From: Gammaproteobacteria bacterium
Lineage (GTDB): Bacteria; Pseudomonadota; Gammaproteobacteria; Thiohalospirales; Thiohalospiraceae
NCBI GenBank assembly: GCA_029883105.1
Contig: JAOUJT010000001.1
Span: 3,035-67,034, forward strand
Direction of reading: 5' to 3'
Length of the DNA stretch: 64,000 nt
Positions 1,026 to 56,023 of the stretch are shown here, in pieces. Numbering within the stretch: position 1 is the stretch's first letter; the number at the start of each line of letters is the position of its first letter. The notes under the pieces are model-generated. The model was not told the origin of the DNA, did not search any database, and worked only from the letters and a program-made list of their open reading frames with translations. Both the position numbers and the translations under genes were made by a program.

Positions 1026-1033
1026 GATTTTAT

Positions 1034-1048
1034 CCCGTTAAATTAACC
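1034..1048 (+). promoter_or_regulatory. class-1 conserved motif CCCGTTAAATTAACC (candidate phage promoter)
   Basis: Same 15-mer at 17594-17608, a one-mismatch copy at 38811-38825, and a 14-mer at 47532-47545. Lies just after the terminators and upstream of the packaging operon. Confidence 0.5.
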
Positions 1049-1378
1049 TAGAATAGGTTCCTTGAAGGGTATATATGGAACATTCCCGTGAGGGATCCTA
1101 GGGAGGGTCTTTAGGGATCCTCTTAGAGATACCTTTAGATACCCTTTTAATACTCCCCTATATTCTATTATTATTAATAGATAACAACAGTGATAGATGA
1201 TCCCCTAAAGGATAGTATAGGGGGATATTTTTCTCCTTCAAAGGGGAGGGCACAGGGGATAATTCAACGGGGTCTTTTTATTCGGAGACTAACACGAACT
1301 CTAAGATTTCCAAGCGCGTCTGGGAGTCAACTTCAAACATTATCCCTCAAAATTCAATTTTAAAGGTATTTACAAGAT

Positions 1379-7700: not shown

Positions 7701-8953
7701 CTACTGCTGATACACTCAGTATTGCACAAGATACGTTAATTTCATTTGCTGAAGGATTTAGCGCAGTTGGTCAAACAGATACTCAGGAGAATGTCGGTGC
7801 AGGTGTAACTCATACGCTTGGTGTCGGGCATGAAAATAAACACTACTATATCTACAAAGATAAAGCTGGCGCATTCGGTGTTACCGAGAATCGACCACTG
7901 GAAGACTCTGATAAGTGGGGTGATAGATCACCATCTGATGCTACCTTACGTACTACCTCAAGGCATTTTGATTACGAGAGTGATACAGGAGTTGTGTTAG
8001 CAAGTGGCGAAAACTCTACTAACTATGCGTATAATGCATTTAATAAAGATATAAATGACATTATTACAGTAGGTAGTTACTGGCAAATTGCGTCCTCTAC
8101 AATATCTTGGTTACAGTACAAGCAAACCGAGAAACGAATTCTCAAATCATGGAGAATAAAAGCACATGGAGACTCTACCGAATTACCTTCACGACTAATC
8201 ATCCAAGGCTCAAATGATGGTCTTAATTGGATTAATATTGATACTACGTATTCAGCTTCTAATTACGTTGGGAGTCTGCTTAATTTGTGGGGAGATCTGC
8301 AATCTACTGCAGACAATACTGTAGCCTATTTATACCATAGAATTTATATCACAGCTAATAACGGTGATCCTACATATACAGGTTTTAGTGAGTTAGAATT
8401 TAACACTATTCTCCCATCAGATCGTTTTGATGTAGCTGAAGGTGTACTTTATAACTCTGCTGGTTCTCCTATTGCTAGAACTTATCTCGCTGAGTTCCGT
8501 ACTGATGACAATGGCGGCGTAATTAATAATACAATCCGTAACTTTACTCCAGCTAAGCAAAAATTCACTGAAGCTGAGATTCAAGGGAAGTTAAAAGTTC
8601 ATGATGAAATTGAGAATAGGGGTATCTGTACGGCATGGGTGAACTTCGATGGTACTCAGAATCCTCCTTTGATACTGGATAGTTACAATGTAAGCGATGT
8701 AGTTGATTTAGGTGTTGGAGCTTACAAAATTATATTTGAAACTCCGATGGATTTACCTGCTTATACAGTCGCTGGTTACGCACAACATGCGGAGAGTGTT
8801 ACAGATTCTAGTTTCAATATACGTGGTTACGGGAATTCTATCACTAAACAGTCTGTGACTGTTCAATCAACTGTGGTAAACGAGACATCATCTGCGAGAA
8901 CTGATTTAGGCGCAGTATGTGTATCTATATTTGGAGGTAAGAAAATACTATGA
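4712..8953 (+). CDS. tail fibre / receptor-binding protein with internal repeats and a discoidin-like domain
   Basis: 1413 aa, Gly/Ser/Thr/Asn-rich. Repeated blocks FTSLGIDDNA.(G/S)ERLQIAD and WDES.G.LTLSTGAG.KT.ALT..ASQ.ATF.G. F5/8-type-C-like segment WRIKAHGD...LIIQGSNDGLNW...FSELEFN. Confidence 0.75.
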   Translation: MTDILTRAAKGDLLEHFEIDANFTNLNNDKIETSLLGLTEGKIPLLGPGGLFPESVFSSVGGLFTEDASNNIVGGTGSGASLTTGTYNFFAGSNAGNLLQSGRDNIAIGYRSLSVNLVNNNNVAIGSAALRFATGAALTALGPYAGNKISSGSNSIAIGWAALGQIDATSASITGSGNVGMGLYAVGGLSTNPTTLHTNLGVGNYALSDLQTGGFNTGLGTQTLETITTGLGNTAIGDRAGRNLTSSSSYNVMIGFRAGPGTGANVHNKLYIHNNVSSTPLIYGDFAISKITINGDFDVTGAFTSLGIDDNATGERLQIADTLSSFGASGVFYGLIHPANDQGITIAGGNAPAKGGNIELGGGTHVSIAGDIRIRSGANSVFTWDESLGSLTLSTGAGVKTTALTINASQRATFSGDVRLSGDTPTLSINDVVSVSDTAMQTYISLQRAGAEKGWLGFGSGANTHLSIVNNLGEIRLSSNGVTALTLDASQDATFAGAVTVQGVFTSLGIDDNASSERLQIADGDIVLGGWHDANYTVKRGIDNRILIFEGGVTSAGSARLLLYGATETTGAGDFALKSGFNTVCLWDESAGALTLSTGAGAKTAALTLDASQNATFAGTVDGRDVAADGAVLDSLVVTSAPNIPARNAVLNKEPVSQGESTRTGMSSTIYTGTSSANPVASGIDMATGEFGGLVWIKSRNTVSNHALFDTVRGTTLELKSNSSGVEVINSDALTAFTSTGFSLGADANVNSIGNTYIAWSWQTNKKITGVTNRNKSYTCHYNPDMGFSIVSYVGDGVAGHEIPHHLGVSPELSIFKNITSSNNWILQGKDIGNSESGDYILLNATNTLTNTTSVKSIFTEETVSLGIASYNTSGVSNIAYHFSSVEGVSKVGKYIGTGAIGNYVECGFTPAFVMIKNITTAEDWQVLDVIRGGGNLLQANTTSAEQSVVLLTINAQGFILLGSGGTNKLNDEYIFLAFSLATSDATKSWTNYSYPTTADTLSIAQDTLISFAEGFSAVGQTDTQENVGAGVTHTLGVGHENKHYYIYKDKAGAFGVTENRPLEDSDKWGDRSPSDATLRTTSRHFDYESDTGVVLASGENSTNYAYNAFNKDINDIITVGSYWQIASSTISWLQYKQTEKRILKSWRIKAHGDSTELPSRLIIQGSNDGLNWINIDTTYSASNYVGSLLNLWGDLQSTADNTVAYLYHRIYITANNGDPTYTGFSELEFNTILPSDRFDVAEGVLYNSAGSPIARTYLAEFRTDDNGGVINNTIRNFTPAKQKFTEAEIQGKLKVHDEIENRGICTAWVNFDGTQNPPLILDSYNVSDVVDLGVGAYKIIFETPMDLPAYTVAGYAQHAESVTDSSFNIRGYGNSITKQSVTVQSTVVNETSSARTDLGAVCVSIFGGKKIL

Positions 8954-17587: not shown

Positions 17588-17593
17588 TAGAAC

Positions 17594-17608
17594 CCCGTTA
17601 AATTAACC
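17594..17608 (+). promoter_or_regulatory. class-1 conserved motif CCCGTTAAATTAACC
   Basis: Exact copy of the 1034-1048 15-mer. Lies in the gap between the MuF-RNAP stop and the scaffold gene. Confidence 0.5.
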
Positions 17609-17691
17609 CTGTTATTTAGTGTAACAAGAGTCTTAACAATTAAACGTGTTGCTGTGCGACACATAAATGAGCTGTGCTCAGGAAAAGAAAG

Positions 17692-35100: not shown

Positions 35101-37782
35101 AGCATTTTTGAGTATGATCTGTCGGAACCTTTTGATGTTTCGTCTGCAACTTATACATCGAGAACTATTAGATTCGCAACGACACTAGGAACGTCTCAAT
35201 ACACATCATTAGCCTTATCTCCTGATGGTAGTAAAATATTTGGAAACAATGCCAGTACTAAGAAAATACACTCCTTTAGTTTTGGTACTAACTTTGATAT
35301 CTCAACTCTTACAGAAGATGCAGGCTCTCTTAGTGTGCTTACCCAATTCGGAGCGAATGGCTTTATTAACTATGTAATAAATAGTACAGGAACACGTGTA
35401 TTTGCCCTCCATACATTGTCACCTTTCCGAATACATCAATACAATCTGAGTACTCCTTGGGATCTTTCAACAGGCGTTTACGCAGCTACTTATATAAGTG
35501 CTGTTACAAATACTACACAAGGTCTTGCGATTTCTAGTGACGACACTAAGTTATATGTCGGTGACAATACGACCAAGACTATTTTAGAGCTTTCAATATC
35601 AGCTTCGGGAGATGTCACTACATGTTCTCTCACAGGTGCCGCTACTGATTTCTCGGATACAAATGTATATGTTGTTGATTTTACATTTGCAAATGAAACA
35701 CTGATTGTATGTGGTGCTGCTATCCCCTATTTTATATATCAGTATGCAAGTAGCATTGAGTGGGCGACAGAAGACCCTGGTACTGAAGGTTCTTCGTGGA
35801 TCACTGAAGCATCTTTCTCAAGGATGGGTAGCTATGGAATAAATACTAATACGCCTGCTTATTTAGCGCCTGTCTTAGCGCATAGTCCTGGTACGCAGGT
35901 AACGAAGCAGAGAGTCTATCAGTGGTCAACAGTAGCGCCTACTTTCCTTCCAAATGCCCAGACTACTTATAACTGGCTGAATGGTACACAGGGAAATGCG
36001 ACGAACATGGGCTCATGGACGTTGGGTGTCACAGCCAGTCCAGGAGGCGTCGGTATTAGATTATGGGTTGCTGAGATTTCTACATCAGCCCCGAATGGCA
36101 CAGTCTCTACCACTCTCGCGTGGGATACAGGAAATCCAAATATATACGCAGGTGACATTACAAACTTACCCGATGGTAAGACACAGGTAGTATCTATTTA
36201 CCGATGGGATACAGCTATTCCTACTATTGTAGGTTCCAGTACCTATACCTGGGAAACGGATATCCTTTCTGTAATTCCAACAGGCTGGTCAGATACGATA
36301 CCTGCCACTGTTTCAGGCTATACACTATATGAAGCTCGTATTACACTTGTTGACATAAAAGAGGCTGTCACAACGTCTGTTGATTGGTCTGCTGCTAAAC
36401 GTCTTGCAATCAACTATGCTGGTGGTGAAGGTATTAATGCTCGCCGCGCCTACGTGTCCACCGTTCAAATAAATTCAGATGAGTCATTAGTTCTGAGTTC
36501 CGGTACAGGCTCCCTACCAGATTCTGAGGCCTGGGATTTCACCGGTGTTACTTGGAGCGATACGTTACCTACAGCAGGCGCTGGTGAAGTTGTTTACCAA
36601 TCCGATGGAATGTACGATGAGAATACCACTAATGTGACATGGTCTCCCCCTTATGTTGCTGCTTTTAAAGTAGGTGATCTTAGTGCAATATCTGCTTCGA
36701 TGGGTACCCTGAATGTAACTTCATCACTCACGATGCAAAATTCGGGTGTCATTAAGTCGGAAGATGCTACTTCTCTAGTTGCAGGCGCAGGTCTTTGGAT
36801 GAGCGGTGGAACAAGTGCACAGTCTGAGTTTAGAGTAGGGGACCCAGCTGCTAGCAACTACTTAGCTTGGTCTCCTGCTCTAGGTGTGCAGGCAAGAGGT
36901 GCTGGACTCTCCATAAATGGAGCAGCCGGAGCGATATCTCTCAATGATGAAACCTTTGGAAATAAGGGGGTACAGCTTGAGTATAATGTAGGATCTCCTC
37001 GGATATATATCGGAAATGGCGAGGGTAGTTCTATCAGTTATGAAAATAATGCATTGACACTCGGCGCTGGCGTGCATATAGATGGCGCAGATTCCATATC
37101 AGCTGTTTCCAACTTCTATCGCTCACACGATTGCACTGACACTGTTGGTTGGGGTACTTTCTTAGGTGGACCGACTCTGACCCAGTTTGACTATGGTTGG
37201 AGAGTCACTATACCAAATACTGACACCGCAGAGTTCTGGGTCTACAACACGAGGCTTTTTCTAAATAATACTGCACAATGGGGTAGTGACAGAAAAGTCT
37301 ACTTTGATATAAGCCTCGCGCCTACTCCTACAGAACCTAATCTTCGAATGGAGATTGGCATGGGATATATGCGGACGAATGTCGTATATAGAAACGGAGT
37401 GTGGTTTTCCATAATCTATGATGATACCTCACCGATAGCGGTGCGAGGTGTGTGCTATAGATGGGGTGTTCCTACTTACACAGCAGCTATGCCTTTTGAT
37501 ATCATGGATCCATCGCGCAGTGATCGCATTCAATTTTTCATAGACTACAAGCCCTCGATCAACGTCTGCGACTTCTACATAAATGGTATCTATCAAGATT
37601 CTCTCCCAATGGGTAGCGGAGATAGACCTACTACTGAAAATAGCAGCGAGACATACATGGCCGGTCTTCGGACTTACAATGCAGGAACACTTACAGGACT
37701 TCTGAATCGAAATTTCTTCATTACCCAAATTAAATGGTGGGTTGCACTTACTGGAGGAGCTTTTGCTGGGTACCCTCGTTAA
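32119..37782 (+). CDS. central tail tip / host-specificity protein (lambda gpJ-like) with beta-propeller-like repeats
   Basis: 1887 aa. N-terminal TM, then VYGRAKIGGTRV, typical of J-like proteins. Five repeats of the type SPDGSKIF...F.Y.LS.P.D.S between nt ~35050 and 35760. Confidence 0.8.
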   Translation: MSVIAAVVGLSAYIGGATILTAVMLGASIKYQQYKQQKALDAMEAAADEAKGFEVVTEGEIDSVKLVYGRAKIGGTRVLHRLKSNYVYAAPALGGEVFVTEGDTRLASSVDSVPVLGTIKVISNTTSFNGAVDGTWDSDNETITQLTVSSEISRSSPTGPFTVTTEVGKAAIFGSAYVAVKIGHTPFDTYGDWSVEEGNAEEPIATVFNYRVDSYNNTTGLLTLKFHSATNPEYLSGTRTASLSANKNGSKNEFLFINQVICHKGISAVHSIDIDGRDFRHPDFGASGRIHVYRDGGIGDPMLNANITGQAASLFPETAYASMVFKLNRDEPQYRGIPEVVFYVDGFELSRIDESLGVYTKSSTKYSSNNPVYVLLDYLTAEYGRNLDISKIDLASFHAAAQLCEKQVDAGSLEDIDINGALWNEKVKTTGTRNIKLYECNLVLDTADDFRSNVNKILGSIPEAHFMWSDGTYKISLKYPEVWSAGTWPAGSIVQYETGGVIDLYRSTVSTIEVPGAGVEWETGPDPQLVSAYLTDDDIILENEITMSWPDLSSRLNYCTITFVNESKDFEKDTVSWPNRYGPGLTTVYDTYLAEDNGIELETSKSPHGITTEYHATAYAEMIVRKSRHAHVLGMTVTNEFMYLEPGDVIHLNSTELKVPSEIYLIDSLKVSAQGNIDIQLTKFDARILAWNAKDMEVVSKRSIYSGDLPQVTGLAYTPPAPGKATLTGGNLTWDPSTYKTALKYNAYIAGGPADIQDFNTVWEFLGSSTSNSLTMPPFTPGRYTLTVVAEALSGKVPPVYNLTTGSRWPLLTVDIADSLLGGNQFALTLYKYSTTDLTGTSVEGGSFDFTNHVTTPPVGYYVSEGVARENATDPLQPGDLYVSTAVASVNHPATIDISLAWTALELFDPKTTQKTIKFYARVPAAEPNPSAPSGGSYLFPEGPVTPPSSALASGSYTGKSFSVATQINGSPTDLASAIISVDGLHMYVSNNDGSIFEYDLSEPFDVSSATYTSRTIRFATTLGTSQYTSLALSPDGSKIFGNNASTKKIHSFSFGTNFDISTLTEDAGSLSVLTQFGANGFINYVINSTGTRVFALHTLSPFRIHQYNLSTPWDLSTGVYAATYISAVTNTTQGLAISSDDTKLYVGDNTTKTILELSISASGDVTTCSLTGAATDFSDTNVYVVDFTFANETLIVCGAAIPYFIYQYASSIEWATEDPGTEGSSWITEASFSRMGSYGINTNTPAYLAPVLAHSPGTQVTKQRVYQWSTVAPTFLPNAQTTYNWLNGTQGNATNMGSWTLGVTASPGGVGIRLWVAEISTSAPNGTVSTTLAWDTGNPNIYAGDITNLPDGKTQVVSIYRWDTAIPTIVGSSTYTWETDILSVIPTGWSDTIPATVSGYTLYEARITLVDIKEAVTTSVDWSAAKRLAINYAGGEGINARRAYVSTVQINSDESLVLSSGTGSLPDSEAWDFTGVTWSDTLPTAGAGEVVYQSDGMYDENTTNVTWSPPYVAAFKVGDLSAISASMGTLNVTSSLTMQNSGVIKSEDATSLVAGAGLWMSGGTSAQSEFRVGDPAASNYLAWSPALGVQARGAGLSINGAAGAISLNDETFGNKGVQLEYNVGSPRIYIGNGEGSSISYENNALTLGAGVHIDGADSISAVSNFYRSHDCTDTVGWGTFLGGPTLTQFDYGWRVTIPNTDTAEFWVYNTRLFLNNTAQWGSDRKVYFDISLAPTPTEPNLRMEIGMGYMRTNVVYRNGVWFSIIYDDTSPIAVRGVCYRWGVPTYTAAMPFDIMDPSRSDRIQFFIDYKPSINVCDFYINGIYQDSLPMGSGDRPTTENSSETYMAGLRTYNAGTLTGLLNRNFFITQIKWWVALTGGAFAGYPR

Positions 37783-37785
37783 CAA

Positions 37786-37828
37786 TTGCGCCATATGTGG
37801 TATCTTATATGAATAGGAATAATCCTAT
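37786..37828 (+). promoter_or_regulatory. class-3 conserved element, copy 1 (TTGCGC-N7-GGTATCTTATATGAATAGGAATAATCCTAT)
   Basis: 30-nt core is identical to the copies at 39915-39944 and 40331-40360. Contains the perfect inverted repeat ATAGGA-ATAA-TCCTAT (37813-37828). Ends about 22 nt before the next start codon. Confidence 0.55.
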
Positions 37829-37850
37829 TATAATAATCAGGAGATACTCG

Positions 37851-38135
37851 ATGAAATATTTAATTATAATAATAGCTCTACTAACAACCCCCGCGTTTGC
37901 CTGTAATTCTCATGATACTAATGGGTATATATGGATTGGGGCTGGACTTCATGACAGTCCACACGATGTAGCATTTGGAAAAGAGATAGCAGAGTGGGGT
38001 GTGAGCTTCAATTTACACCAGATCAGTCCTATCAACAGCCTCCGTTTCATCCTTAAGCACGATTCAGGGATATGGACGAGGGAGAGAGACTATGGCTACA
38101 ACACTGCAACCTTCAGGCTACAAGCTAACTTCTAA
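37851..38135 (+). CDS. small secreted protein or lipoprotein (94 aa)
   Basis: CAGGAG RBS. Signal sequence MKYLIIIIALLTTPAFA|C. Ends in ...TATFRLQANF (C-terminal Phe). HDSG segment present. Confidence 0.55.
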   Translation: MKYLIIIIALLTTPAFACNSHDTNGYIWIGAGLHDSPHDVAFGKEIAEWGVSFNLHQISPINSLRFILKHDSGIWTRERDYGYNTATFRLQANF

Positions 38136-38683
38136 TGAAACTTTCAGAAATATCACGTAAAAAGTCACTGGCACGGATCGTCAGTGGCTTCATGAACATG
38201 GATGTTCCCGTAAAGGAGCGTATAGAGTCTCTTGAGAGATACCTATGCACTCTCCCTCAACAAGAAGCACCAGTTGAAGAACTCTGGGGCAAAGATGTAT
38301 ATGTTCGGGAACTTATAATCCCTGCAGGTTCTTTTGTAATAGGGCGTATTCACAAATATGATCATGTAAGTATTATGATCGAAGGCGAACTTTTAATGTG
38401 GACAGAATTCGACGAGACAATACACTTAAGTGGCTACAATAAAGTCATTGCAAAAGCAGGTATTAAACGAGTCGGTTATGTTCTACAAGAAACGAAATGG
38501 ATTACCGCTCACGGTGTCACCGAGACAGACAACTTTAAAAACCCCGTCGAGGCTTTAACCGTTGCAACATATGGAGAGTATAGCACATTCAAGGATGCTG
38601 AGATGGTATGCATCGAGGGCAACTCCATAGAACAAAACCTGAGTCTGCCGGTGTCAAAATCGGTCTCCAGAACGCCAGACTAG
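38135..38683 (+). CDS. hypothetical protein (possible cupin-like beta-barrel)
   Basis: 182 aa, start overlaps the previous stop. Beta-rich segment VYVRELIIPAGSFVIGRIHKYDHVSIMIEGELLMW. Confidence 0.45.
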   Translation: MKLSEISRKKSLARIVSGFMNMDVPVKERIESLERYLCTLPQQEAPVEELWGKDVYVRELIIPAGSFVIGRIHKYDHVSIMIEGELLMWTEFDETIHLSGYNKVIAKAGIKRVGYVLQETKWITAHGVTETDNFKNPVEALTVATYGEYSTFKDAEMVCIEGNSIEQNLSLPVSKSVSRTPD

Positions 38684-38810
38684 CACCACGATCTCAGGGT
38701 CACCCTTATGGGAGTGTGCCTGAAAAAACGACAGCAGAGACGGCCAGTCTGGAAGCCGTCCTCAAAAAATCCTTTAGAATCAAGGGGTTAGGGCGGTCGT
38801 CACCTCAGAC

Positions 38811-38825
38811 CCCGTTAAATTATCC
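38811..38825 (+). promoter_or_regulatory. class-1 conserved motif, variant CCCGTTAAATTATCC
   Basis: 14/15 match to the 1034 and 17594 copies, with the flanking C and CTG also shared with 17593-17611. Lies 170 nt upstream of the holin gene. Confidence 0.45.
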
Positions 38826-38994
38826 CTGTAGGCTCCCCCGTAATGTAGTATTTATAACTCCCTATCACCACTGTTGTAAATCTATAACAATAAAGGATTA
38901 AAGAATAGAATAAGGATATCCCCTCAAGACCTTCTCTAAAGAGGTCACTCAATAGTCCCTAGGGCTAACTAAAATATAAATAAAGAGGTATATC

Positions 38995-39531
38995 ATGGTT
39001 CCAATTGTAGCAGGTCTTCTAAAAGGAGGACTCTCGCTTGTCGCAAATGCATTTCTTGCAAAAGGTAAGGAATGGGTCGAAGAGAAAGCGGGTATCACTC
39101 TCGATCCTAAAGAACCACTCTCAGAAGAGCAGTTGGTTGCTCTACGAAAGTTTGAGATGGATAATGAAGTGGAATTGCGTAAGCTACAAATTGAAGATAA
39201 TCGTCTCGCAAAAGAAATCGACGAGATGTATCTAAAAGACACTCAGAGCGCACGTCAAATGCAGATGACGGCGTTAGAACAAGACGACGTATTCGCTAAG
39301 CGTTTCGTTTATTACTTTGCATCTTTTTGGTCACTAGGCGCTGCTATATACATTGCAGCTATAACTTTTATGGCAATCCCAGAGGCAAATACTCGCTTTG
39401 CTGACACAATATTGGGCTTTCTCTTGGGTACAATTGTCGCCCAGATCATCTCATACTTCTATGGTTCTAGCAAATCATCACAGAATAAGGATAAACTGAA
39501 AGATGAGATGCTGAAGAAGGTATTGAAATGA
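38995..39531 (+). CDS. holin (3-TM, GTA-type holin-like)
   Basis: N-terminal hydrophobic helix, central charged coiled coil, and two C-terminal TM segments. Start of the endolysin gene overlaps its stop. Confidence 0.55.
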   Translation: MVPIVAGLLKGGLSLVANAFLAKGKEWVEEKAGITLDPKEPLSEEQLVALRKFEMDNEVELRKLQIEDNRLAKEIDEMYLKDTQSARQMQMTALEQDDVFAKRFVYYFASFWSLGAAIYIAAITFMAIPEANTRFADTILGFLLGTIVAQIISYFYGSSKSSQNKDKLKDEMLKKVLK

Positions 39532-39857
39532 GGCTTGGTCAACACCAGGAAGCATTTTTCAGAGACCTCCTCAAACTGGGTATCCACGCATTATCCCTGG
39601 GATATGAGATACGTGGCGGCGAATTACAACGCCCAATAGAGATGCAAGAGCTCTATATTAAGATGGGACGCTCTAAGACGATGCGGAGTGAGCATCTCAA
39701 CAAGTGTGCGATAGATCTTTATTTCACGAAGAAAGGTAAGCTTGTGTATCCCGAGGAACTCGGACGATACTGGGAGAGCCTTGACACTCGAAATTCAGCA
39801 GGGATGTTCTGGAAGTCTTTCAAAGACGGACCTCATTATCAACGTTCAACCCGATAG
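39528..39857 (+). CDS. endolysin, M15-family zinc peptidase (L-alanyl-D-glutamate / VanY-like)
   Basis: SEHLNKCAID (H-x6-D zinc ligands) and distal DGPHYQ (third His). 109 aa. Confidence 0.7.
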   Translation: MRLGQHQEAFFRDLLKLGIHALSLGYEIRGGELQRPIEMQELYIKMGRSKTMRSEHLNKCAIDLYFTKKGKLVYPEELGRYWESLDTRNSAGMFWKSFKDGPHYQRSTR

Positions 39858-39899
39858 TACCGATGACCCCTTATGTTCTTAGGAATATAGGGGGTTTAA

Positions 39900-39944
39900 A
39901 ACTGCGCAAAAATGGGTATCTTATATGAATAGGAATAATCCTAT
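39900..39944 (+). promoter_or_regulatory. class-3 conserved element, copy 2
   Basis: AACTGCGCAAAAATGGGTATCTTATATGAATAGGAATAATCCTAT. 65/71 nt identical to copy 3 when counted through the start codon. Confidence 0.55.
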
Positions 39945-39965
39945 CACAACAACTGAGGTAATATT

Positions 39966-40277
39966 ATGAACAAGCAATTTGCAGAAATGATCGAAAAAAG
40001 TCTTTCAGGTTTTAGTAAGTACGGTTTGGAGGCGTTGGCAAAACGTAAGCTGACGGCTTCGGATATCCTTGCGAGAGCTACAAAACGGGTTGTCTCACGG
40101 GAAGATGAAGAGTATTACGTTCTTGTACGTAGTCCTACGAACGACCAGATAAAAGCCCGTATTACTGACCGCACACGGGTAGGTGATTTGGAAGGTATAA
40201 TCGATGGTCTGCTGGACCGACTTAATGACAGTATGGAAACTGACATCCACGGCAAGAAGCCAAAAGCTAAAGCCTAG
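39966..40277 (+). CDS. hypothetical protein (103 aa)
   Basis: GAGGTAA RBS supplied by the conserved cassette. Followed by the hairpin TACGGGG-N8-CCCCGTA (40292-40313). Confidence 0.6.
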   Translation: MNKQFAEMIEKSLSGFSKYGLEALAKRKLTASDILARATKRVVSREDEEYYVLVRSPTNDQIKARITDRTRVGDLEGIIDGLLDRLNDSMETDIHGKKPKAKA

Positions 40278-40315
40278 TAATTGCTCTACTGTACGGGGTG
40301 TAAAAACCCCGTATG

Positions 40316-40360
40316 AACTGCGCAAAAACAGGTATCTTATATGAATAGGAATAATCCTAT
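40316..40360 (+). promoter_or_regulatory. class-3 conserved element, copy 3
   Basis: AACTGCGCAAAAACAGGTATCTTATATGAATAGGAATAATCCTAT, with the same spacing to the start codon as copy 2. Confidence 0.55.
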
Positions 40361-40381
40361 CACAACAAACGAGGTAACACT

Positions 40382-40672
40382 ATGAAAAATCAAGAAGTAT
40401 TAAAGAAAATCCCAGAAGCCATCCTTTGGTATTTAAAGACAATGCTCGTAAATATGCTGATGCTTTTATGCGGAATCTTTCTTGTGTATGAAATTCAGCT
40501 TTTGATCCTCTATCCGATCTTAATTGCACAAGCTTTTATGTATGCTGCTTTCTTCGCAGCTATAATGACTGCTGGTCAATATATAGCTGCTAGTGTATAT
40601 GAGTGGGTCAGCCGCTGTAAATATGATCGTGAGCATGGTATCATCAACGGCAAATGCCAGGCGGCTGTCTAA
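40382..40672 (+). CDS. membrane protein (96 aa, multi-TM)
   Basis: Hydrophobic segments LVNMLMLLCGIFLVY, LILYPILIAQAFMYAAFFAAIMTAG. Confidence 0.55.
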   Translation: MKNQEVLKKIPEAILWYLKTMLVNMLMLLCGIFLVYEIQLLILYPILIAQAFMYAAFFAAIMTAGQYIAASVYEWVSRCKYDREHGIINGKCQAAV

Positions 40673-40839
40673 TGTTTAGTCTAGCAACGATCGCATTGAT
40701 AGTGAGCGGTATAAGTCTTATCACATCAGTCTTTGTAGTCCCTTATGTGATTGTTTCTTTCTTTATTAAGCTTGTACTTATTGCCATGGTCTTCGGGCTG
40801 GTGATGTATGCTATTAAGAGAGCTTTCGCAAACAGGTAA
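40672..40839 (+). CDS. small membrane protein (55 aa, 2 TM)
   Basis: TAATG overlap with the previous gene. Sequence MFSLATIALIVSGISLITSVFVVPYVIVSFFIKLVLIAMVFGLVMYAI. Confidence 0.5.
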   Translation: MFSLATIALIVSGISLITSVFVVPYVIVSFFIKLVLIAMVFGLVMYAIKRAFANR

Positions 40840-40870
40840 TCAACAAATCTTTTTTCGAAGGAGGAAAGGT

Positions 40871-41275
40871 ATGTCATCAACAATTGTAGCAATCCCAGGG
40901 TACTTCTGTATAAGTGATAAATATCCAACATCTCTGGGAAATATCAACTTGAGCTTCGAACACTATGCAGAAGGTGTTCAGCGGCTCGATTTAGCAGGGC
41001 TTGAACCTGTAGAAGTGACGTCGATTTGGAATCATGAAAAGAAACCAATGAGACGCCGGTGGGGTGGATTTGTATTCAACCTTCAAGTCTTTGGTGTGAT
41101 TGATACAAAGGCGAAATCAAAAGAGAAACCTGCGTCAAAACAGGGGAATCAAAAGACGGAACAAACGAAAACAACAAAAGGGTCTCTTATCCCATTCTTT
41201 GTGGAAAAAAGAATATATGATTATATCGTACAACAAACCAACTATGCGAGACCTGCGGATGTAATAAGATTATAG
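40871..41275 (+). CDS. hypothetical protein (134 aa)
   Basis: ATG at 40871 after AGGAGGAAAGGT. The track start at 40808 overlaps the upstream gene. Confidence 0.55.
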   Translation: MSSTIVAIPGYFCISDKYPTSLGNINLSFEHYAEGVQRLDLAGLEPVEVTSIWNHEKKPMRRRWGGFVFNLQVFGVIDTKAKSKEKPASKQGNQKTEQTKTTKGSLIPFFVEKRIYDYIVQQTNYARPADVIRL

Positions 41276-41332
41276 CTGCTACCCCATATGACACCTTCGG
41301 GTGTTGTATGGGGGCGTGTAGCTTTATTTTTT
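41274..41332 (+). terminator. strong rho-independent terminator
   Basis: CCCCATATGACACC-TTCG-GGTGTTGTATGGGG 14-bp stem with G-U pairs, an outer AGCT/AGCT extension, then TTATTTTTT. Confidence 0.85.
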
Positions 41333-41346
41333 CTTCCGGAGGAACA

Positions 41347-41481
41347 ATGGCTTCAACAAAGCTCAAAATCGTTCACTATGTTTTAATATTTAGTGTATTA
41401 GCCTTATTTTCAAAGCTGCGCCCTGAGACAATGCTTGTCGGTGCAATCGCGATCTACCTCTATCAGAAGGTAACTTCATGA
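41347..41481 (+). CDS. small membrane protein (44 aa, below ORF-track cutoff)
   Basis: GGAGGA RBS 5 nt upstream. Sequence MASTKLKIVHYVLIFSVLALFSKLRPETMLVGAIAIYLYQKVTS. Confidence 0.5.
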   Translation: MASTKLKIVHYVLIFSVLALFSKLRPETMLVGAIAIYLYQKVTS

Positions 41482-41547
41482 TAAAATTTATAGTGGGTCT
41501 ATATTTGATATCGTTAATCCCAAAGGTTATTGAGAAAATTGAAAGCT

Positions 41548-43803
41548 ATGATAAAACAAAAGATAATTCTGACAACAACAAAAAGGATAGCAAAGGAAAT
41601 TGCACCACAAAACCCCCTAATATATCTAAAAGAACATGATGTCGAAAAGTATATTAATGAATTAATCTCGACAGTCTATCTGTTCACACGCCCTAAGAAG
41701 GGTTCATCGGACCCTCTCTATATGGTTGAAATTATATCGGCTATCGGACATCGGGTCAGAGGAAAGTTAGGACTTAGAAAAGACTCAGCGTTAGCAGCTA
41801 AAACAGGAGCGTTTCTTTTATATACATTCGAAGTACTTAATATCATCCATGTTATCCTTGGAGCTGGTAGACGTGGACATAATGCGTACATTGTAGATGT
41901 TTTGGACGATGCTACGATAAATGAACTATGGAAGGAGCTAGGTGACCGCGAGATCGAGAAGTTACCTGCGCTACAGCCGCATCAGGATTGGAAGCATTCA
42001 AGGCATCCTACAGGAATGCTTATGGTAAAAACAGGATGTAAAGAGACACTTGAATCACTAACACCTCAAACACATCCTATCGTCTTCAACGTCCTGAACA
42101 GAGCTCAACAAGTAGGTTGGCGAATAAATACGGAGATTCATCACTTACAACAATGGGCACTAAAGTACAAAACAGTCGCCTTTGCAGATATATGGGAACA
42201 ACAAAACCCTGAAGCGCGTGCTACAAAATTAAGAGAGGCTCGATCTATTGACTCGATTGCGAGTAAATACCTAGGGACAACCTTCTATCATCTCTATTAC
42301 TATGACTTCAGAGGTCGTAAGTATGCAGCCACTGCTTATCTACACGAACAAGGAAGTGATGTAGCGAAAGGTCTCTTGCTCAGAGATGATAAGAAGCGAA
42401 TAGGAAAAGAAGGATTTTTCTGGCTACTTGTGAGTATCGCCTCTAACTGGGGCGGTGAGAGTGGTCGTGAAGATGGATTGAAAACAGATAAAATACCTCT
42501 TGAAGAAAGGTATCAATGGGCGCTCGCAAATGAGGATATTTTATTGTCCTACGCGAAATCACCTAAAGTGAATCAGGGATGGATGAAAGCTGATAAGCCC
42601 TGGCAATTTATAGCAGCGTGTTTTGAGCTAAGGTCTTGTTACCGATGGGCTAAGTATGACCATACTAAGCATGATCACCTAAAGGAGGAAATCTATGAAT
42701 ATGAGTCTCATCTTGAGTGCTTTATTGATGGTAGTAACAATGGCTCTCAGCATCTATGTGCGCTTACACGCGACGAAGTTACGGCTCCTCACGTTAATCT
42801 TGTGCCACTTGATTATCCTGGGGACCTCTATAAATATGTTGCAGATCATGTTTGGGACAGCTTAGAGGCTCAAGTTAATCTCCTGACAGAAGCTGAAGTT
42901 GAAATTTGTGAAAAGTTCATAGATGATCTGGTCGTGCACAAAAAGCGAATAAACAGTGCGCCCCGTGGTAGCGAAATCAAAAGGCTCCTTGTGGATAAGA
43001 TACGAAAGTTTAAGGAGGAACATGGACTTTTAATGGTGCTTGTAGCTCCTGTATTTTGGTTTAGAATCCAGGATGCTAAGGAGAAACGTAAGATTGTGAA
43101 GAGAAACACAATGACGCTTCCCTATGGCGGAACACCCTATGGACTTGGACAACAGATCATTGATGATGCTAAGAAACATGGGATTGAACAACTCCTATAT
43201 ATGGAACATAGCTGGGGCGCTTTCTTAGGAAGAGAAGTATTTAAAAACTGCCAGGAAGCTCTTAAACGACCTATGCAACTCCTTGATATCTTTGAGAAGG
43301 CAGGGAAGCTAGCAGAAGCCGAAGAGAGATTCTTAAAATGGACTGTACCAATAACAAACTTCCCGGTAGTGCAGCACTACACGGAAGGTCGTGTGAAGAA
43401 GATATGGGTTCAGTACGGACCGCCTAAAGGAACCAGAAATTCAACAGGTTACTTTACAAACACCTTACAATTGCATATTTGCTTTGTAGAAGATCCACAA
43501 CCATCGAAGCGCAAACAAGCACAGGGAGCTTCTCCTAATGCCATTCACAGCCTAGATGCAGCACACTTAATGCTTACAGTAGATGAGGCACCTTTTCCAA
43601 TAACAACTGTTCATGATTCTTTTGGATGTTTGTTAGCTGATATGCCTGAACTGTACAAACTAATACGTGAAACATTCGTAGAACTCCATGAGGTCAATCC
43701 ACTCTATTCATTGTTTGAACAGATAGGAGGCGACATCTCAGACGTTGATCTGGGGAATCTTGATATCAATTTGATACTTGATTCAGAATATTGTTTTTCA
43801 TAG
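41548..43803 (+). CDS. T7-like single-subunit DNA-dependent RNA polymerase
   Basis: YYDFRGRKY...EQGSDVAKGLL (42304-), motif A IDGSNNGSQH (42727-), motif B KRNTMTLPYGG (43099-), motif C TVHDSFG (43609-43626). ATG at 41548 preferred; TTG at 41530 is possible. Confidence 0.9.
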   Translation: MIKQKIILTTTKRIAKEIAPQNPLIYLKEHDVEKYINELISTVYLFTRPKKGSSDPLYMVEIISAIGHRVRGKLGLRKDSALAAKTGAFLLYTFEVLNIIHVILGAGRRGHNAYIVDVLDDATINELWKELGDREIEKLPALQPHQDWKHSRHPTGMLMVKTGCKETLESLTPQTHPIVFNVLNRAQQVGWRINTEIHHLQQWALKYKTVAFADIWEQQNPEARATKLREARSIDSIASKYLGTTFYHLYYYDFRGRKYAATAYLHEQGSDVAKGLLLRDDKKRIGKEGFFWLLVSIASNWGGESGREDGLKTDKIPLEERYQWALANEDILLSYAKSPKVNQGWMKADKPWQFIAACFELRSCYRWAKYDHTKHDHLKEEIYEYESHLECFIDGSNNGSQHLCALTRDEVTAPHVNLVPLDYPGDLYKYVADHVWDSLEAQVNLLTEAEVEICEKFIDDLVVHKKRINSAPRGSEIKRLLVDKIRKFKEEHGLLMVLVAPVFWFRIQDAKEKRKIVKRNTMTLPYGGTPYGLGQQIIDDAKKHGIEQLLYMEHSWGAFLGREVFKNCQEALKRPMQLLDIFEKAGKLAEAEERFLKWTVPITNFPVVQHYTEGRVKKIWVQYGPPKGTRNSTGYFTNTLQLHICFVEDPQPSKRKQAQGASPNAIHSLDAAHLMLTVDEAPFPITTVHDSFGCLLADMPELYKLIRETFVELHEVNPLYSLFEQIGGDISDVDLGNLDINLILDSEYCFS

Positions 43804-45284: not shown

Positions 45285-45343
45285 AGTCTAGCTCGTTATC
45301 TCGATGCCTGCTAAAATACATACTGTAAAATGCACCTAAAAGG

Positions 45344-45363
45344 CATGCCGGAATCGTAACCGG
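45344..45363 (+). promoter_or_regulatory. class-2 conserved motif (CATGCCGGAATCGTAACCGG)
   Basis: One of four intergenic copies of AT(G/C)CCGGA-N3/4-GTAACCG. Lies 38 nt upstream of the next start codon. Confidence 0.5.
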
Positions 45364-46097: not shown

Positions 46098-48103
46098 TGT
46101 TCAGACTGGTTTTTGATATTGAAGGCGATGGGTTCCTAAGAGATGTAACACGGATGTGGACGATCATTATCCATAACTTAACCACAGGCGAGCGCGTGGA
46201 ATTCCTTGAGAATGACCTAGGCTGGCAGGATTATTTTAATAATAATGTGGGGATTGTAGTTGGGCATAACATTTTAGGATATGATGTTCCTGTCCTAGAA
46301 AAACTCTTTGGGTATAAATTCCCAAAAGAAACTCAATTTCATGACACGCTTTTGATGTCACAGATTCTTGACTACCGGCGATTCGGCTACCAAGGGCACT
46401 CACTAGCGGTGTGGGGTAAATCACTAAATTATCCAAAAATTGACTTCCACGACTTCTCAAAATGGACTCCTGAGATGTCTAAGTATTGTCACCAAGACGT
46501 AAATCTTAACGTTGAGGTGTATAAAATTCTAATACAAGAATATTATGATTTGTTTGACAAACTTGAGAAAGATGAGGGAACAGGTCATAGAATAAAAACA
46601 TTTCTTCAGGCTGAACATGCTGCCACTACTTGGCAAGCTCAGGCTGAATTGCACGGCTGGCCCTTCGACAAAGAAGGAGCTATTGAACTCTTCGGTAAGT
46701 TAGAGGAGGAACTGACTGAAATTCGGGATAAATTAGAAGGAGTCTTAGGCTCAAAGTCAATTGCAATCGACAAGGTAAAAGGAATTGTGCCTCACAAAGA
46801 ACCTAAGTGGGTTGCTACAGGGTACTATCATGCACATACTGCGCAGTGGTTTGGTATCGATCCTCGCTGCGGTTCTGATCTTTCTACAAAAGAGGCTCGT
46901 ATGATCATAGCCTCCGGCGAATATGAGGAGGAAGATGAAATAATGAAGATGGCTCAGGCTATCCTGACGCATGGTGAGCGACCGATTACAGGCCCGTATT
47001 GTAGAGTAGACTTCCAGAAACTAAAGTTAAGCTCTGTCGCAGATGTTAAAATTTATCTATATCGACATGGATGGGAACCCTCCGAATGGAACACTAAATG
47101 GAATCCTGCTACTAAAAAGAATGAAAACACTTCACCTAAAATCATTGATGACGATCTCGATCTTTTAGGCGAAAACGGAAGGTTGTATCGAGCCTTTACA
47201 ACAGCAGAATCTCGATACAGTATAGTAAAAACATGGATTGAAAACGTTGATGACAATGGAATGCTTCATGGAAACTCAAGGATGATAGGAACGCCGAGTA
47301 TGCGCGCTACACACCAGATCATTGTAAATGTACCCTCTGGAGAGCTTAAGGATGATGGAACTCCTGTTAGTAAATGGGGTCCTGAGATGAGAGCCTTGTT
47401 TAGGTCAAAGCCAGGCTGGAAATGCATAGGATGTGATTCAAAAGGCAACCAGGCGCGAGGTCTCGCACACTATCTAGGAGATCAGGAGTTTATAGACGTA
47501 ATCCTGCACGGTGATATTCATGCATACAACGCCGTTAAATTAACCGAAGCATTGTCGAAGATGGGTGTACAGCACACGGTACCAAGAAGTGCCGCAAAGA
47601 GAATCCTGTATGCCTTCCTATTTGGAGCTTCAGGTAAGAAGCTGTGGAGCTATATATTTGGCACCTTCAATGCAACTAAAGGAAATAAGTTAAAAAAGGA
47701 GTTTATTAAAGCAGTACCTGGGTTTGAAGACCTTAACAAAAAGCTGGAGAATATCTATGGAAGCACCTCAAAGTTTGGATACGGCTACATTCCTTCAATG
47801 GTTGGTAATAGAATTTATGTTGATTCTTTTCATAAACTTCTTGTATATTTACTACAATCCCTTGAAAAGATTACATGTAGCACTGCGGTTATGCTCACTA
47901 TGCAGCGTCTGGAGGAAGAAAGTATTCCATACATCCCTCTCATCTACTATCATGATGAGGAGGATTTCATGGTACCAGAAGAATTTGCAGAACGTGCAGC
48001 TGAAATAGGTTCAGGCGCCTTCAAGGATGCGGCGCTCCTATATGATATCAAAATAATGGATGGTGATGCAAAGATCGGCGACAGCTGGCTAGATATTCAT
48101 TAA
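46097..48103 (+). CDS. family A DNA polymerase with 3'-5' exonuclease domain
   Basis: Exo motifs FDIEGDGF, GHNILGYDVPVL, YCHQDVNL. Polymerase motifs CDSKGNQARGLAH (A), RSAAKRILYAFLFGAS (B), YYHDEEDF (C). Confidence 0.9.
   Translation: MFRLVFDIEGDGFLRDVTRMWTIIIHNLTTGERVEFLENDLGWQDYFNNNVGIVVGHNILGYDVPVLEKLFGYKFPKETQFHDTLLMSQILDYRRFGYQGHSLAVWGKSLNYPKIDFHDFSKWTPEMSKYCHQDVNLNVEVYKILIQEYYDLFDKLEKDEGTGHRIKTFLQAEHAATTWQAQAELHGWPFDKEGAIELFGKLEEELTEIRDKLEGVLGSKSIAIDKVKGIVPHKEPKWVATGYYHAHTAQWFGIDPRCGSDLSTKEARMIIASGEYEEEDEIMKMAQAILTHGERPITGPYCRVDFQKLKLSSVADVKIYLYRHGWEPSEWNTKWNPATKKNENTSPKIIDDDLDLLGENGRLYRAFTTAESRYSIVKTWIENVDDNGMLHGNSRMIGTPSMRATHQIIVNVPSGELKDDGTPVSKWGPEMRALFRSKPGWKCIGCDSKGNQARGLAHYLGDQEFIDVILHGDIHAYNAVKLTEALSKMGVQHTVPRSAAKRILYAFLFGASGKKLWSYIFGTFNATKGNKLKKEFIKAVPGFEDLNKKLENIYGSTSKFGYGYIPSMVGNRIYVDSFHKLLVYLLQSLEKITCSTAVMLTMQRLEEESIPYIPLIYYHDEEDFMVPEEFAERAAEIGSGAFKDAALLYDIKIMDGDAKIGDSWLDIH
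47532..47545 (+). promoter_or_regulatory. intragenic copy of the class-1 motif (CCGTTAAATTAACC)
   Basis: Exact 14-mer of the intergenic class-1 motif, inside the DNA polymerase ORF in the same orientation. Confidence 0.3.
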
Positions 48104-48393: not shown

Positions 48394-48454
48394 ATCCAAC
48401 AGTTCGTATAAAAGTTGGTCACACTCCAGGTATGCTCTGGAATTGTGTAAGAAG

Positions 48455-48488
48455 CTATCGCTAGCAACGATGCCGGAAAAGTAACCGT
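48455..48488 (+). promoter_or_regulatory. class-2 conserved motif, extended form (CTATCGCTAGCAACGATGCCGGAAAAGTAACCGT)
   Basis: 30/34 identical to 53336-53369. The core is shared with 45344 and 48668. Confidence 0.55.
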
Positions 48489-48667: not shown

Positions 48668-48687
48668 ATCCCGGATAACGTAACCGG
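48668..48687 (+). promoter_or_regulatory. class-2 conserved motif (ATCCCGGATAACGTAACCGG)
   Basis: Core motif with a one-nt longer spacer. Lies 36 nt upstream of the 48723 start codon. Confidence 0.5.
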
Positions 48688-48722
48688 GGCTAATCAATTA
48701 TACAATCCGTATGGAGAGCATT

Positions 48723-53288: not shown

Positions 53289-53335
53289 GTCGGGGTTGGT
53301 TGCACTTGTGTCTGCGGACAAGTAATATTATAAAA

Positions 53336-53369
53336 CTATCGCTCGCATCGATCCCGGAAAAGTAACCGG
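53336..53369 (+). promoter_or_regulatory. class-2 conserved motif, extended form (CTATCGCTCGCATCGATCCCGGAAAAGTAACCGG)
   Basis: 30/34 identical to 48455-48488. Lies in a 366-nt non-coding gap. Confidence 0.55.
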
Positions 53370-55781: not shown

Positions 55782-56023
55782 TGTTTCAATTTATTGTACA
55801 CAAGCTGCTAGCTCTCACAGCAGTTGTAATAATGTTCAGCCAAGGGTTTTCGGCTTTTCAGGCCGGTCTTGAAATAGGGTTCAGCGAAATAGATCGACTG
55901 GATTGGTTGTTTCTGGCTATCTCAGCGGTAATGATATCCGCTATGTCTGAGCCACCTAAAAAGGGAGGTGTTGAGGGTGAGCCACCTAAAAAGGGAGGTG
56001 TTGAGGGTAAGCCAAATGAGTAA
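55781..56023 (+). CDS. small membrane protein with duplicated EPPKKGGVEG C-terminus
   Basis: Two TM segments. The C-terminus is encoded by a perfect 2 x 30-nt tandem repeat. Overlaps the primase start by 8 nt. Confidence 0.5.
   Translation: MFQFIVHKLLALTAVVIMFSQGFSAFQAGLEIGFSEIDRLDWLFLAISAVMISAMSEPPKKGGVEGEPPKKGGVEGKPNE
55949..56008 (+). repeat. perfect tandem direct repeat, 2 x 30 nt
   Basis: GAGCCACCTAAAAAGGGAGGTGTTGAGGGT occurs twice back to back. Confidence 0.95.

Follow-up and report, generated by a model that had tools for sequence, protein, structure and literature searches.

A conserved promoter-like motif followed by a variable hairpin at the head of the early region in phages encoding two single-subunit RNA polymerases

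A conserved motif within a repeated cassette

The 64,000-nucleotide (nt) stretch of DNA analyzed here (hereafter the window), from a contig of a Gammaproteobacteria bacterium, comprises most of a phage genome, with all genes on the + strand. It carries three copies of a short cassette containing the palindrome ATAGGA-ATAA-TCCTAT, and a comparison with 55 related viral contigs divides this cassette in two: a conserved 5′ part, which we term motif A, and an unconserved 3′ palindrome. We lean toward the interpretation that motif A is an early promoter read by a polymerase that the phage itself supplies, most likely a single-subunit RNA polymerase (RNAP) fused to a MuF head-morphogenesis domain (MuF-RNAP), with transcription starting near G12/A13 of the motif.

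The cassette is repeated far beyond chance. Its 30-nt core, GGTATCTTATATGAATAGGAATAATCCTAT, occurs exactly three times, at 37799, 39915, and 40331, always on the + strand, and no further match with three or fewer mismatches is present in the window (none was expected from shuffled sequences). In each copy, a (T/C)TGCGC box begins 13 nt before the core, which in turn begins 52, 51, and 51 nt before an ATG in copies 1, 2, and 3, respectively, and copies 2 and 3 are identical at 65 of 71 positions. The palindrome is perfect, with a 6-bp stem and a 4-nt loop. All of these features are exactly as the original prediction described them. The 16-nt palindrome is invariant among the three copies, whereas the flanking nonconserved bases differ: positions −7 to −1 (numbered from the G of GTATC as position 1) and the sequence past the palindrome in copy 1 are unlike those in copies 2 and 3. 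No other copy of the palindrome occurs in the 64-kb window, and an Rfam scan of 37500–41600 gave no match. Folded as RNA, the palindrome yields −5.6 to −7.1 kcal/mol (z of −1.4 to −2.1), which is weak and unremarkable on its own.

The comparison set consisted of IMG/VR loci whose T7-like RNAP is 41–75% identical to that encoded in the window. The 11-mers most widely shared among these loci are pieces of GTATCTTATATGA (38 loci, 70 occurrences), and pieces of CCCGTTAAATTAACCC rank next (30 loci). Motif A, of about 32 nt, makes up the 5′ two-thirds of the cassette and has the consensus AAAnT-GCG-S-AAAAA-nn-R-GTATCTTATATGA-W-A. It takes in the TGCGC box and leaves out the palindrome, which lies at about positions 15–30 in the window. 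In a logo of 72 nonredundant sites, positions 1–13 are conserved at 90–100% and the GCG at 94–96%, and information drops to about zero past position 16. The motif is contiguous, nonpalindromic, oriented, and intergenic, with 13 invariant or nearly invariant bases plus the upstream box, and direct reading of the consensus reveals no usable inverted repeat in the conserved block. A position weight matrix (PWM) built from the relatives only finds exactly three sites in the window, all scoring at least 28.6 bits, whereas the maximum in shuffled windows is 2.6. True sites are all on the + strand, are co-oriented with the downstream genes, and lie 13–60 nt before a ribosome-binding site (RBS) and ATG. 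The motif is unaltered in GC-rich phage contigs, and the elements that carry it span different host classes and GC contents from 0.39 to 0.62.

Wider searches gave the same division of the cassette. Megablast of the region against GenBank phages returned no match, and an exact search of IMG/VR for the 30-mer GGTATCTTATATGAATAGGAATAATCCTAT and for GTATCTTATATGAATAGG returned none; hence there is no close relative in which compensatory changes in the stem could be sought. A metagenome scan for GTATCTTATATGAATA gave at least 120 matches, mostly due to chance, of which only 10 held the full motif. The palindrome is absent from these 10 sites and from IMG/VR, as it is from the 55 loci. Conservation of the palindrome in homologous phages, which had been put forward as a check on its importance, was therefore not observed.

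The genomic position of motif A is also distinctive. Of 63 sites in the relatives, 62 precede the T7-like RNAP gene, at distances of 0.7–6.4 kb (median 1.9 kb), in a sample offering 440 kb of sequence downstream of that gene and 312 kb upstream. There are one to three copies per phage, most often two. The same order of elements recurs: an adhesin-like gene, a second conserved motif (motif B, described below), holin-like and endolysin genes, a terminator, the motif A copies, hypervariable small genes, the RNAP gene, another motif B, and then the gene for a single-stranded DNA-binding protein (SSB) and the remaining genes. In at least 15 related loci, a GGGG with a T run directly precedes the first motif A. 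This recurring order gives motif A the layout expected of early promoters. By synteny, copy 2 is the positional homolog of the putative first early promoter in the relatives. Copy 2 would then be the ancestral first early promoter and copy 3 the second, and copy 1 would be a recent copy that gives early expression to a secreted-protein gene inserted in the tail region. No other early promoter candidates were found in the window. Both the conservation in the family and the position support the proposal that the cassette is a promoter-type element for which a phage polymerase is the likeliest reader.

Motif B (A-n-CCCGTTAAATTAACCCT) is likewise family-wide and marks middle and late genes. In the relatives, 34 sites follow the RNAP gene, and an upstream motif B precedes all motif A sites in 14 of 14 loci. 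We regard motif B as a candidate promoter of the T7-like polymerase. In the window it precedes capsid, lysis, and terminase-region genes, and in the relatives the SSB gene. One window copy falls inside the DNA polymerase open reading frame (ORF), and another lies on the minus strand, which has no predicted genes. The motif is often followed by a hairpin that uses CCCT...AGGG. A likeness to the T3 promoter (AATTAACCCT) was judged coincidental, as conservation ends at CCCT. A scan for diverged motif B in the distant loci L052 and L053 gave no useful result.

The hairpin that follows the motif

Beyond the conserved block, about one-third of motif A sites carry a short hairpin that differs from the palindrome of the window and starts at the last bases of the motif, and others carry none. 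About half of the sites lack any stem of 4 bp or more. Even so, hairpins are enriched: of the 72 sites, 22 have a perfect stem of 5 bp or more that starts no more than 12 nt from the TGA (6.1 expected), and 14 have one of 6 bp or more (1.5 expected). The mean z score of the folding energy after motif A is about −0.9 (p of about 1e-5). The 5′ arms usually begin at G12–W14, with an overall range of positions 12–15, and loops in the relatives are 3–10 nt long. The arms of different phages are unrelated (for example, GATAAC/GTTATC, ATAGAC/GTCTAT, GGTATA/TATACC, and AAGAAC/GTTCTT). Motif B has the same design, wherein 28 of 54 sites have a hairpin that starts within AACCCT and uses the conserved CCCT. 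We read this arrangement as a common way to build transcript 5′ ends in the family of the window phage. ATAGGA-ATAA-TCCTAT would then be a lineage-specific form of a frequent, optional hairpin whose 5′ arm is formed by the last bases of the promoter.

Sites within one phage resemble each other downstream of the motif more than sites from different phages do (0.51 versus 0.33 over positions 14–33), an effect that is not seen in the upstream flank (0.30 versus 0.30). In most relatives, the copies within a phage nevertheless carry different hairpins or none, and the window, with an identical 16-nt sequence at each of its three copies, is unusual. This identity could stem from recent duplication or from a phage-specific regulator.

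Two relatives bound the start site. In L011 (site at 7731) and L002 (site at 6690), the RBS begins 2–3 nt after TATATGA, which implies that transcription starts no later than about position 15. This bound rules out both a −10 element at TATGAW and a hairpin located upstream of the start. Rather than serving as a recognition signal, the hairpin is probably an accessory feature of the transcript's 5′ end; its most probable role would be that of a terminal stem-loop, for instance one that protects the RNA end.

The invariant ATG at motif positions 10–12 (37809–37811 in copy 1) opens a 14-codon frame in copies 2 and 3 (39925–39969 and 40341–40385), and the TGA stop of this frame shares bases with the main start codon (ATGA). 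The same ATG is in frame with the downstream gene, a1, in copy 1. There is no consistent pattern among the relatives, and the reading frame is probably due to chance.

Candidate readers of motif A

The window combines a siphovirus-type structural module (terminase, portal-like protein, tape measure, and tail proteins) with a T7-like replication module (gp2.5-like SSB, family A DNA polymerase, 5′–3′ exonuclease, primase-helicase, ribonucleotide reductase, and ligase), and it encodes two single-subunit RNAPs, the T7-like enzyme and the divergent MuF-RNAP. Aligned to the T7-like enzyme of the window, MuF-RNAP keeps both catalytic aspartate motifs, QDASSSGAQ and TIHDAFF. A search of PDB sequences with the single MuF-RNAP sequence gave no match. 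The family profile matches T7 RNAP at residues 768–841 (E of about 1e-5), a match that covers motif C only and gives no measure of closeness to the N4 virion RNAP. MuF-RNAP is present on at least 164 viral contigs in IMG/VR, and at least eight contigs carry both enzymes.

The pair is also found in DSS3_VP1, which with DSS3_PM1 (both roseophages of the Naomviridae) is the nearest cultured relative. These phages share the gene order of the window, with 34% identity in the T7-like enzyme and 29% over 90% of MuF-RNAP; EBPR siphovirus 1 has a MuF-RNAP with 58% identity. In DSS3_VP1 (L151), a pair of diverged motif A-like sites (35779–35821 and 36226–36268; ...GAGAAAACTAAGGCATCTATAATGA) directly follows the tape-measure gene at the start of the early region, and their core matches motif A at 10 of 14 positions. 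The same genome holds at least 10 copies of a B-like sequence, ATAGGGTGCGTTAAAGAGGGGGA (between 2237 and 46577), which has CGTTAAA in common with motif B. DSS3_VP1 could thus be usable as an experimental model. Pelagibacter phage Kolga, which has a T7-like RNAP and a MuF protein without a polymerase, might have told motifs A and B apart by which of them it carries, but it is too divergent and showed no recognizable promoter-like repeats.

Two conserved motifs with complementary distributions accompany two phage polymerases that travel together. In the mechanism that we favor, MuF-RNAP, which we assume to be packaged in the capsid and released along with the DNA, would read motif A as duplex DNA and start transcription at or beside G12/A13 of GTATCTTATATGA. 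The resulting transcripts would supply host-takeover genes and the T7-like polymerase, which would then read CCCGTTAAATTAACCCT on the middle and late genes. We assign motif A to MuF-RNAP because the motif is confined to the block that holds the T7-like polymerase gene, because its conservation is unlike that of −35/−10 hexamers, because it is unchanged across phage contigs and bacterial islands of different host classes and GC contents, and because in DSS3_VP1 it has diverged along with both polymerases.

Several points weigh against this assignment. Promoter function, start site, and polymerase identity are all inferred, and the packaging and ejection of MuF-RNAP are assumed from its MuF domain only. 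Placing +1 at G12 gives motif A a layout like that of T7 promoters, so the T7-like enzyme could be its reader. Moreover, TATCTT at positions 2–7 carries the T−12, A−11, and T−7 of a −10 element, and a start about 7 nt further on fits the bound derived above, such that recognition by host RNA polymerase with a phage factor is possible. The identity of the palindrome in all three copies is not something that a pure role in RNA stability requires. Finally, a test of which strand is structured favored the antisense strand in raw form (p = 0.006), a composition effect of the A/C-rich sense strand; with shuffling controls, both strands are equally structured (paired p = 0.41), and hairpins acting as RNA are not separated from hairpins acting as DNA.

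Recognition by the host sigma-70 holoenzyme is unlikely, although it is the alternative that fares best. The host enzyme could use TTGCGC-N17-ATGAAT, as originally suggested, or a TATCTT −10 element aided by a phage factor at GCG-S-AAAA. T7 uses host promoters A1–A3 for its early genes, and motif A occupies the same position as these host-read promoters; TATCTT matches at three key −10 positions as noted, and the DSS3_VP1 version of the motif even holds a perfect TATAAT. However, the −10-like frames differ, being at positions 2–7 in the family and 7–12 in DSS3_VP1, despite the alignment of the two motifs. At position 15, equivalent to −7, 67% of sites have an A where ATGAAT ends in T; upstream, it is GCG and not TTG that is invariant; and the would-be spacer, GTATCTTA, is invariant as well. 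These three observations speak against the TTGCGC-N17-ATGAAT promoter in particular. The distance from TTGCGS to TATCTT is only 9 nt, which leaves no usable −35 spacing, and the full motif is unchanged in elements from hosts that differ in class and GC content. A simple sigma-70 scan of the region gave 17 sites compared with 14.2 in shuffled sequences.

We consider it quite unlikely that the 757-amino acid (aa) T7-like enzyme reads motif A. In such a scheme, the enzyme would act in positive feedback on the early operon, and some other, unseen signal would give the first transcripts. The T7 consensus has an A-rich segment at −17 to −15, T−8/C−7, an AT-rich segment at −6 to −1, and a G at +1, which motif A resembles when +1 is set at G12, and in T7 itself, a phage promoter is located at the left end of the early genes. 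Against this, all but one of the 63 sites counted in the relatives lie upstream of the enzyme's own gene, and the equally conserved motif B on the middle and late genes means that there are two specificities, which fit two polymerases. A polymerase restricted to the early region would leave the late genes without one, and no other candidate for the first early promoter was found.

A third alternative, which we judge improbable, assigns a regulatory role to the palindrome: as an operator at about +2 to +17, it would bind a dimeric phage regulator that shuts off the three early promoters of the window phage. Its placement over the start site suits repression, the 30-mer that includes it is identical in three copies whose sequences from −7 to −1 and past the palindrome differ between copy 1 and copies 2/3, and the raised within-phage similarity covers positions 14–33 and not the upstream flank. 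On the other side, the palindrome is unique to the window phage and has no copies beyond the three cassettes in the 64 kb, in most relatives the copies of one phage differ in their hairpins or lack them, none of the early ORFs was identified as repressor-like, and a recent duplication of the cassette can explain the identity. The general operator of the original prediction is thus disfavored, although the identity in three copies makes an operator specific to this phage possible.

Least probable is an N4-type mechanism, the hairpin-type promoter for MuF-RNAP of the original prediction, wherein the palindrome extrudes as a DNA hairpin that a virion polymerase recognizes, with transcription starting about 11 nt downstream of the loop. 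In its favor, the early region opens with three copies, as with N4 promoters P1–P3 (PMC4496689), a virion-type single-subunit polymerase is encoded, the window has room for a start near 37831 before the RBS, and the hairpins after the motif are enriched and no weaker on the template strand. Against it, the hairpin lies outside and 3′ of a conserved block that has no usable inverted repeat of its own, is of a sequence unique to the window phage, is missing from many sites, varies in stem and loop length with AT-rich stems unlike the GC-rich heptamer of N4 (PMC4496689), and cannot be obligatory upstream of the start in L011 and L002.

Neighboring genes, bacterial islands, and known systems

Table 1. 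Positions in the window of the motifs, hairpins, and genes discussed
Feature	Position	Strand	Remarks
MuF-RNAP gene, 1539 aa	12968–17587	+	PF04233 + PF00940; MuF head-morphogenesis domain fused to divergent single-subunit RNAP; among head genes
Motif B	1031–1050	+	
Motif B	~1255–1274	−	
Motif B	17591–17610	+	PWM 33.9 bits; before scaffold and major-capsid genes
Motif A copy 1	37783–37815	+	PWM 28.6 bits; positions −16 to +16, position 1 at 37800
Palindrome/hairpin after copy 1	37813–37828	+	Not conserved in relatives
Gene a1, 94 aa	37851–38135	+	Between 1887-aa tail protein gene and adhesin-like ORF
Motif B (GACCCCGTTAAATTATCCCT)	38808–38827	+	PWM 28.6 bits; before holin-like and endolysin genes
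Terminator-like hairpin	39865–39896	+	14 bp, then UUUAAA; end of lysis genes, directly before copy 2
Motif A copy 2	39899–39931	+	PWM 44.7 bits; synteny holin-like, endolysin, terminator, motif A
Palindrome/hairpin after copy 2	39929–39944	+	
Early gene e1, 103 aa	39966–40277	+	No homologs in relatives
Hairpin without U tract	40291–40314	+	9 bp; between e1 and copy 3; specific to window
Motif A copy 3	40315–40347	+	PWM 39.0 bits; heads ORF run into T7-like RNAP gene
Palindrome/hairpin after copy 3	40345–40360	+	
Early gene e2, 96 aa	40382–40672	+	No homologs in relatives
T7-like single-subunit RNAP gene, 757 aa	41530–43803	+	PF00940, 1.5e-67; PHROG 414; downstream of all motif A copies
Motif B	47528–47547	+	

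The original prediction pictured each cassette as driving a small, stand-alone gene within an insulated, moron-like unit. The hairpins it noted before copies 2 and 3 are real and strong, with folding energies of −20.7 kcal/mol (z −4.5) and −15.8 kcal/mol (z −4.2), respectively; no counterpart of the second was seen before later motif A copies in the relatives. The description of a stand-alone gene holds for copy 2. It does not hold for copy 3, which heads a run of ORFs reaching 41530, the + strand being free of terminator-like sites from 40382 to that position, or for copy 1, whose gene a1 overlaps the start of the next ORF (38135–38683). The moron-like character of copy 1 has some support: a1 has no homolog in the 55 related loci and no Pfam or PHROG match, and the adhesin-like neighbor is present in L009, L029, and L048 with no motif A site before it, such that copy 1 plus a1 looks like a lineage-specific insertion. 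On the other side, no terminator follows a1. The a1 protein has a signal peptide-like N terminus of the AXA type (MKYLIIIIALLTTPAFA) and a C terminus that ends in Phe (...FRLQANF). A possible function is superinfection exclusion, with a1 encoding an envelope protein expressed early.

Several further repeats were noted. In the replication region, an intergenic element made up of a short hairpin and, after it, CCGGAAAAGTAACCG(G) occurs at 45327–45362, 48452–48487, 53333–53368, and ~48670–48689. Compared by eye, it agrees with motif B in 11 of 16 positions, and it is almost phage-specific, with one similar site at L040:5703. Just before the motif B at 1031, two tandem 46-nt terminator-like units (931–976 and 980–1025; CTCCTGATCACC...GGTTGGGAG plus a T run) are 85% identical and probably mark the end of the replication-region transcripts. 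At 55948–56007, a perfect 30-nt tandem duplication (TGAGCCACCTAAAAAGGGAGGTGTTGAGGG twice) extends across 55968, where the primase-helicase gene is predicted to start with GTG. In EBPR siphovirus 1 (L152, 20046–25419), a gene for an HNH endonuclease lies between two halves of the MuF-RNAP gene, and the MuF-RNAP or T7-like RNAP gene is interrupted or lengthened by ~0.7–1 kb in L124 and L147–L150 and in L032, L035–L040, L043, L047, L048, and L050. These arrangements suggest mobile introns or inteins in both polymerase genes.

Motif A is also found outside phage genomes. A search of GTDB species genomes for GCGSAAA-N5-GTATCTTATATGA gave 18 matches, where by our own arithmetic about two would be expected by chance, and several of them lie in large contigs of chromosomal origin from Brevundimonas, Sphingomonas, Erythrobacter, Caenibius, and Marinomonas. 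In chromosomes of Erythrobacter, Sphingomonadales, Brevundimonas, and others, a perfect motif A heads co-oriented sets of small genes that end in a tyrosine integrase gene (L281:1794–5973, L279:3248–8000, and L287:985–6286; also L275, L280, L284, and L288–L291). In the Erythrobacter locus (L281), the motif stands 120 nt from a host photosynthesis gene and points into small ORFs, a gene for a VapE-like primase (present also in L279), and the integrase gene. Related integrases (55–76% identical) and small ORFs recur in L279, L280, L287, and L289, the Brevundimonas island (L287) has a motif B-like site at 3181 before a 532-aa ORF, and a tRNA-Thr(CGT) gene lies 2–8 kb upstream in five island loci. 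The 8-kb island loci contain no phage structural or polymerase genes, and no att-site repeats were found around them. These islands look like small satellite-type or defense-type elements wired to the promoters of the window family. The presence of motif A at their heads supports the idea of a portable promoter read by something that the phage brings, and their distribution suggests the host groups concerned.

We tentatively extend the mechanism that we favor to a broader picture, which we hold to be possible rather than probable. Motif A would be the duplex, nonhairpin promoter of an uncharacterized class of injected polymerases, the MuF-fused RNAPs of the Naomviridae and a large uncultured sister group, and would open a cascade independent of host polymerase that runs from MuF-RNAP through motif A to the T7-like RNAP and motif B. 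Alpha- and gammaproteobacterial islands with integrase and VapE genes would have captured motif A (and at least one of them also motif B) and would stay silent until a phage injects its polymerase. A literature search found no paper describing promoters or MuF-RNAP transcription in this phage group. The founding DSS3_VP1 paper makes no mention of RNA polymerases and refers to a promoter only in passing, in regard to an intron, and a 2017 survey states that virion RNA polymerase modules are found in N4-like phages only (PMC5512222).

For a widespread group of phages, the analysis defines a precise consensus, about 32 nt long, together with a late motif as its companion, with a polymerase assignment that is directly testable, and it corrects the idea of the hairpin as signal to one of the hairpin as accessory. 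If the assignment is true, virion-delivered single-subunit RNAPs are not confined to N4-like and crAss-like phages and need not use hairpin promoters, and the phages would offer two new orthogonal polymerase/promoter pairs. The island promoter suggests a simple way for satellites or defense islands to sense this phage family; such elements would then be wired directly to the transcription machinery of the invader.

In N4, the injected virion RNA polymerase uses promoters P1–P3, and the window phage family shares with N4 the presence of a few copies (three in N4, one to three here) at the start of the early region (PMC4496689); the window has no sites beyond its three. In N4, the hairpin is required and lies inside a conserved block from −17 to +1, upstream of +1, as an inverted repeat at −17 to −5 with a 5–7-bp stem, a 3-nt loop, and a GC-rich heptamer centered at −11 (PMC4496689). 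Here, the conserved block is linear and nonpalindromic, and the hairpin is downstream, optional, and variable, starting at or after the 3′ end of the block with a 4-nt loop in the window and an unconserved sequence. Both systems have promoters upstream of the genes for the next polymerase, two promoter classes, and a virion-associated single-subunit polymerase (assumed here from the MuF domain) together with a smaller T7-like one. They differ in that N4 gp50 has 3500 aa, whereas the polymerase here is joined to a MuF head domain and encoded by a genome of siphovirus type, and in that N4 late genes use host promoters, whereas the late genes here carry a phage-type motif.

Morons such as lambda lom adjoin tail genes. 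Copy 1 plus a1 similarly looks like a promoter-plus-gene unit for a small secreted or envelope-type protein, placed between conserved tail-region genes and absent from relatives. Unlike such morons, which are expressed from the prophage by a host promoter, it would be expressed from an early promoter belonging to the phage itself; it also lacks its own terminator, and its stop overlaps the start of the next gene. The motif A cluster resembles T7 A1–A3 in being a tandem array after the end of the late region that heads an early operon with a phage RNAP gene; it differs from them in having no −35/−10 hexamer pattern and in a motif that is invariant across phages and islands of different host classes.

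At the level of sequence, and leaving aside the start site, motif A has the features of the T7-group promoters, which are duplex and extend from −17 to +6 (PMC4496689). Motif A is likewise a contiguous, conserved, oriented, and intergenic duplex motif, co-oriented with its genes, that ends at the putative start site in phages encoding two single-subunit RNAPs; with +1 at G12, it has an A-rich segment at about −17 to −15, an invariant block from −11 to −1, and a purine start. It differs in its extra conserved GCG-S box at about −23 to −20, it is unrelated to the T7, T3, and SP6 consensus sequences beyond a few positions, and it is found only in the early region upstream of the T7-like polymerase gene, where T7 uses host promoters. 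The T7 gene 10 leader begins with a 5′ stem-loop, and a stem-loop would often form in the same way at the 5′ ends of the transcripts predicted here.

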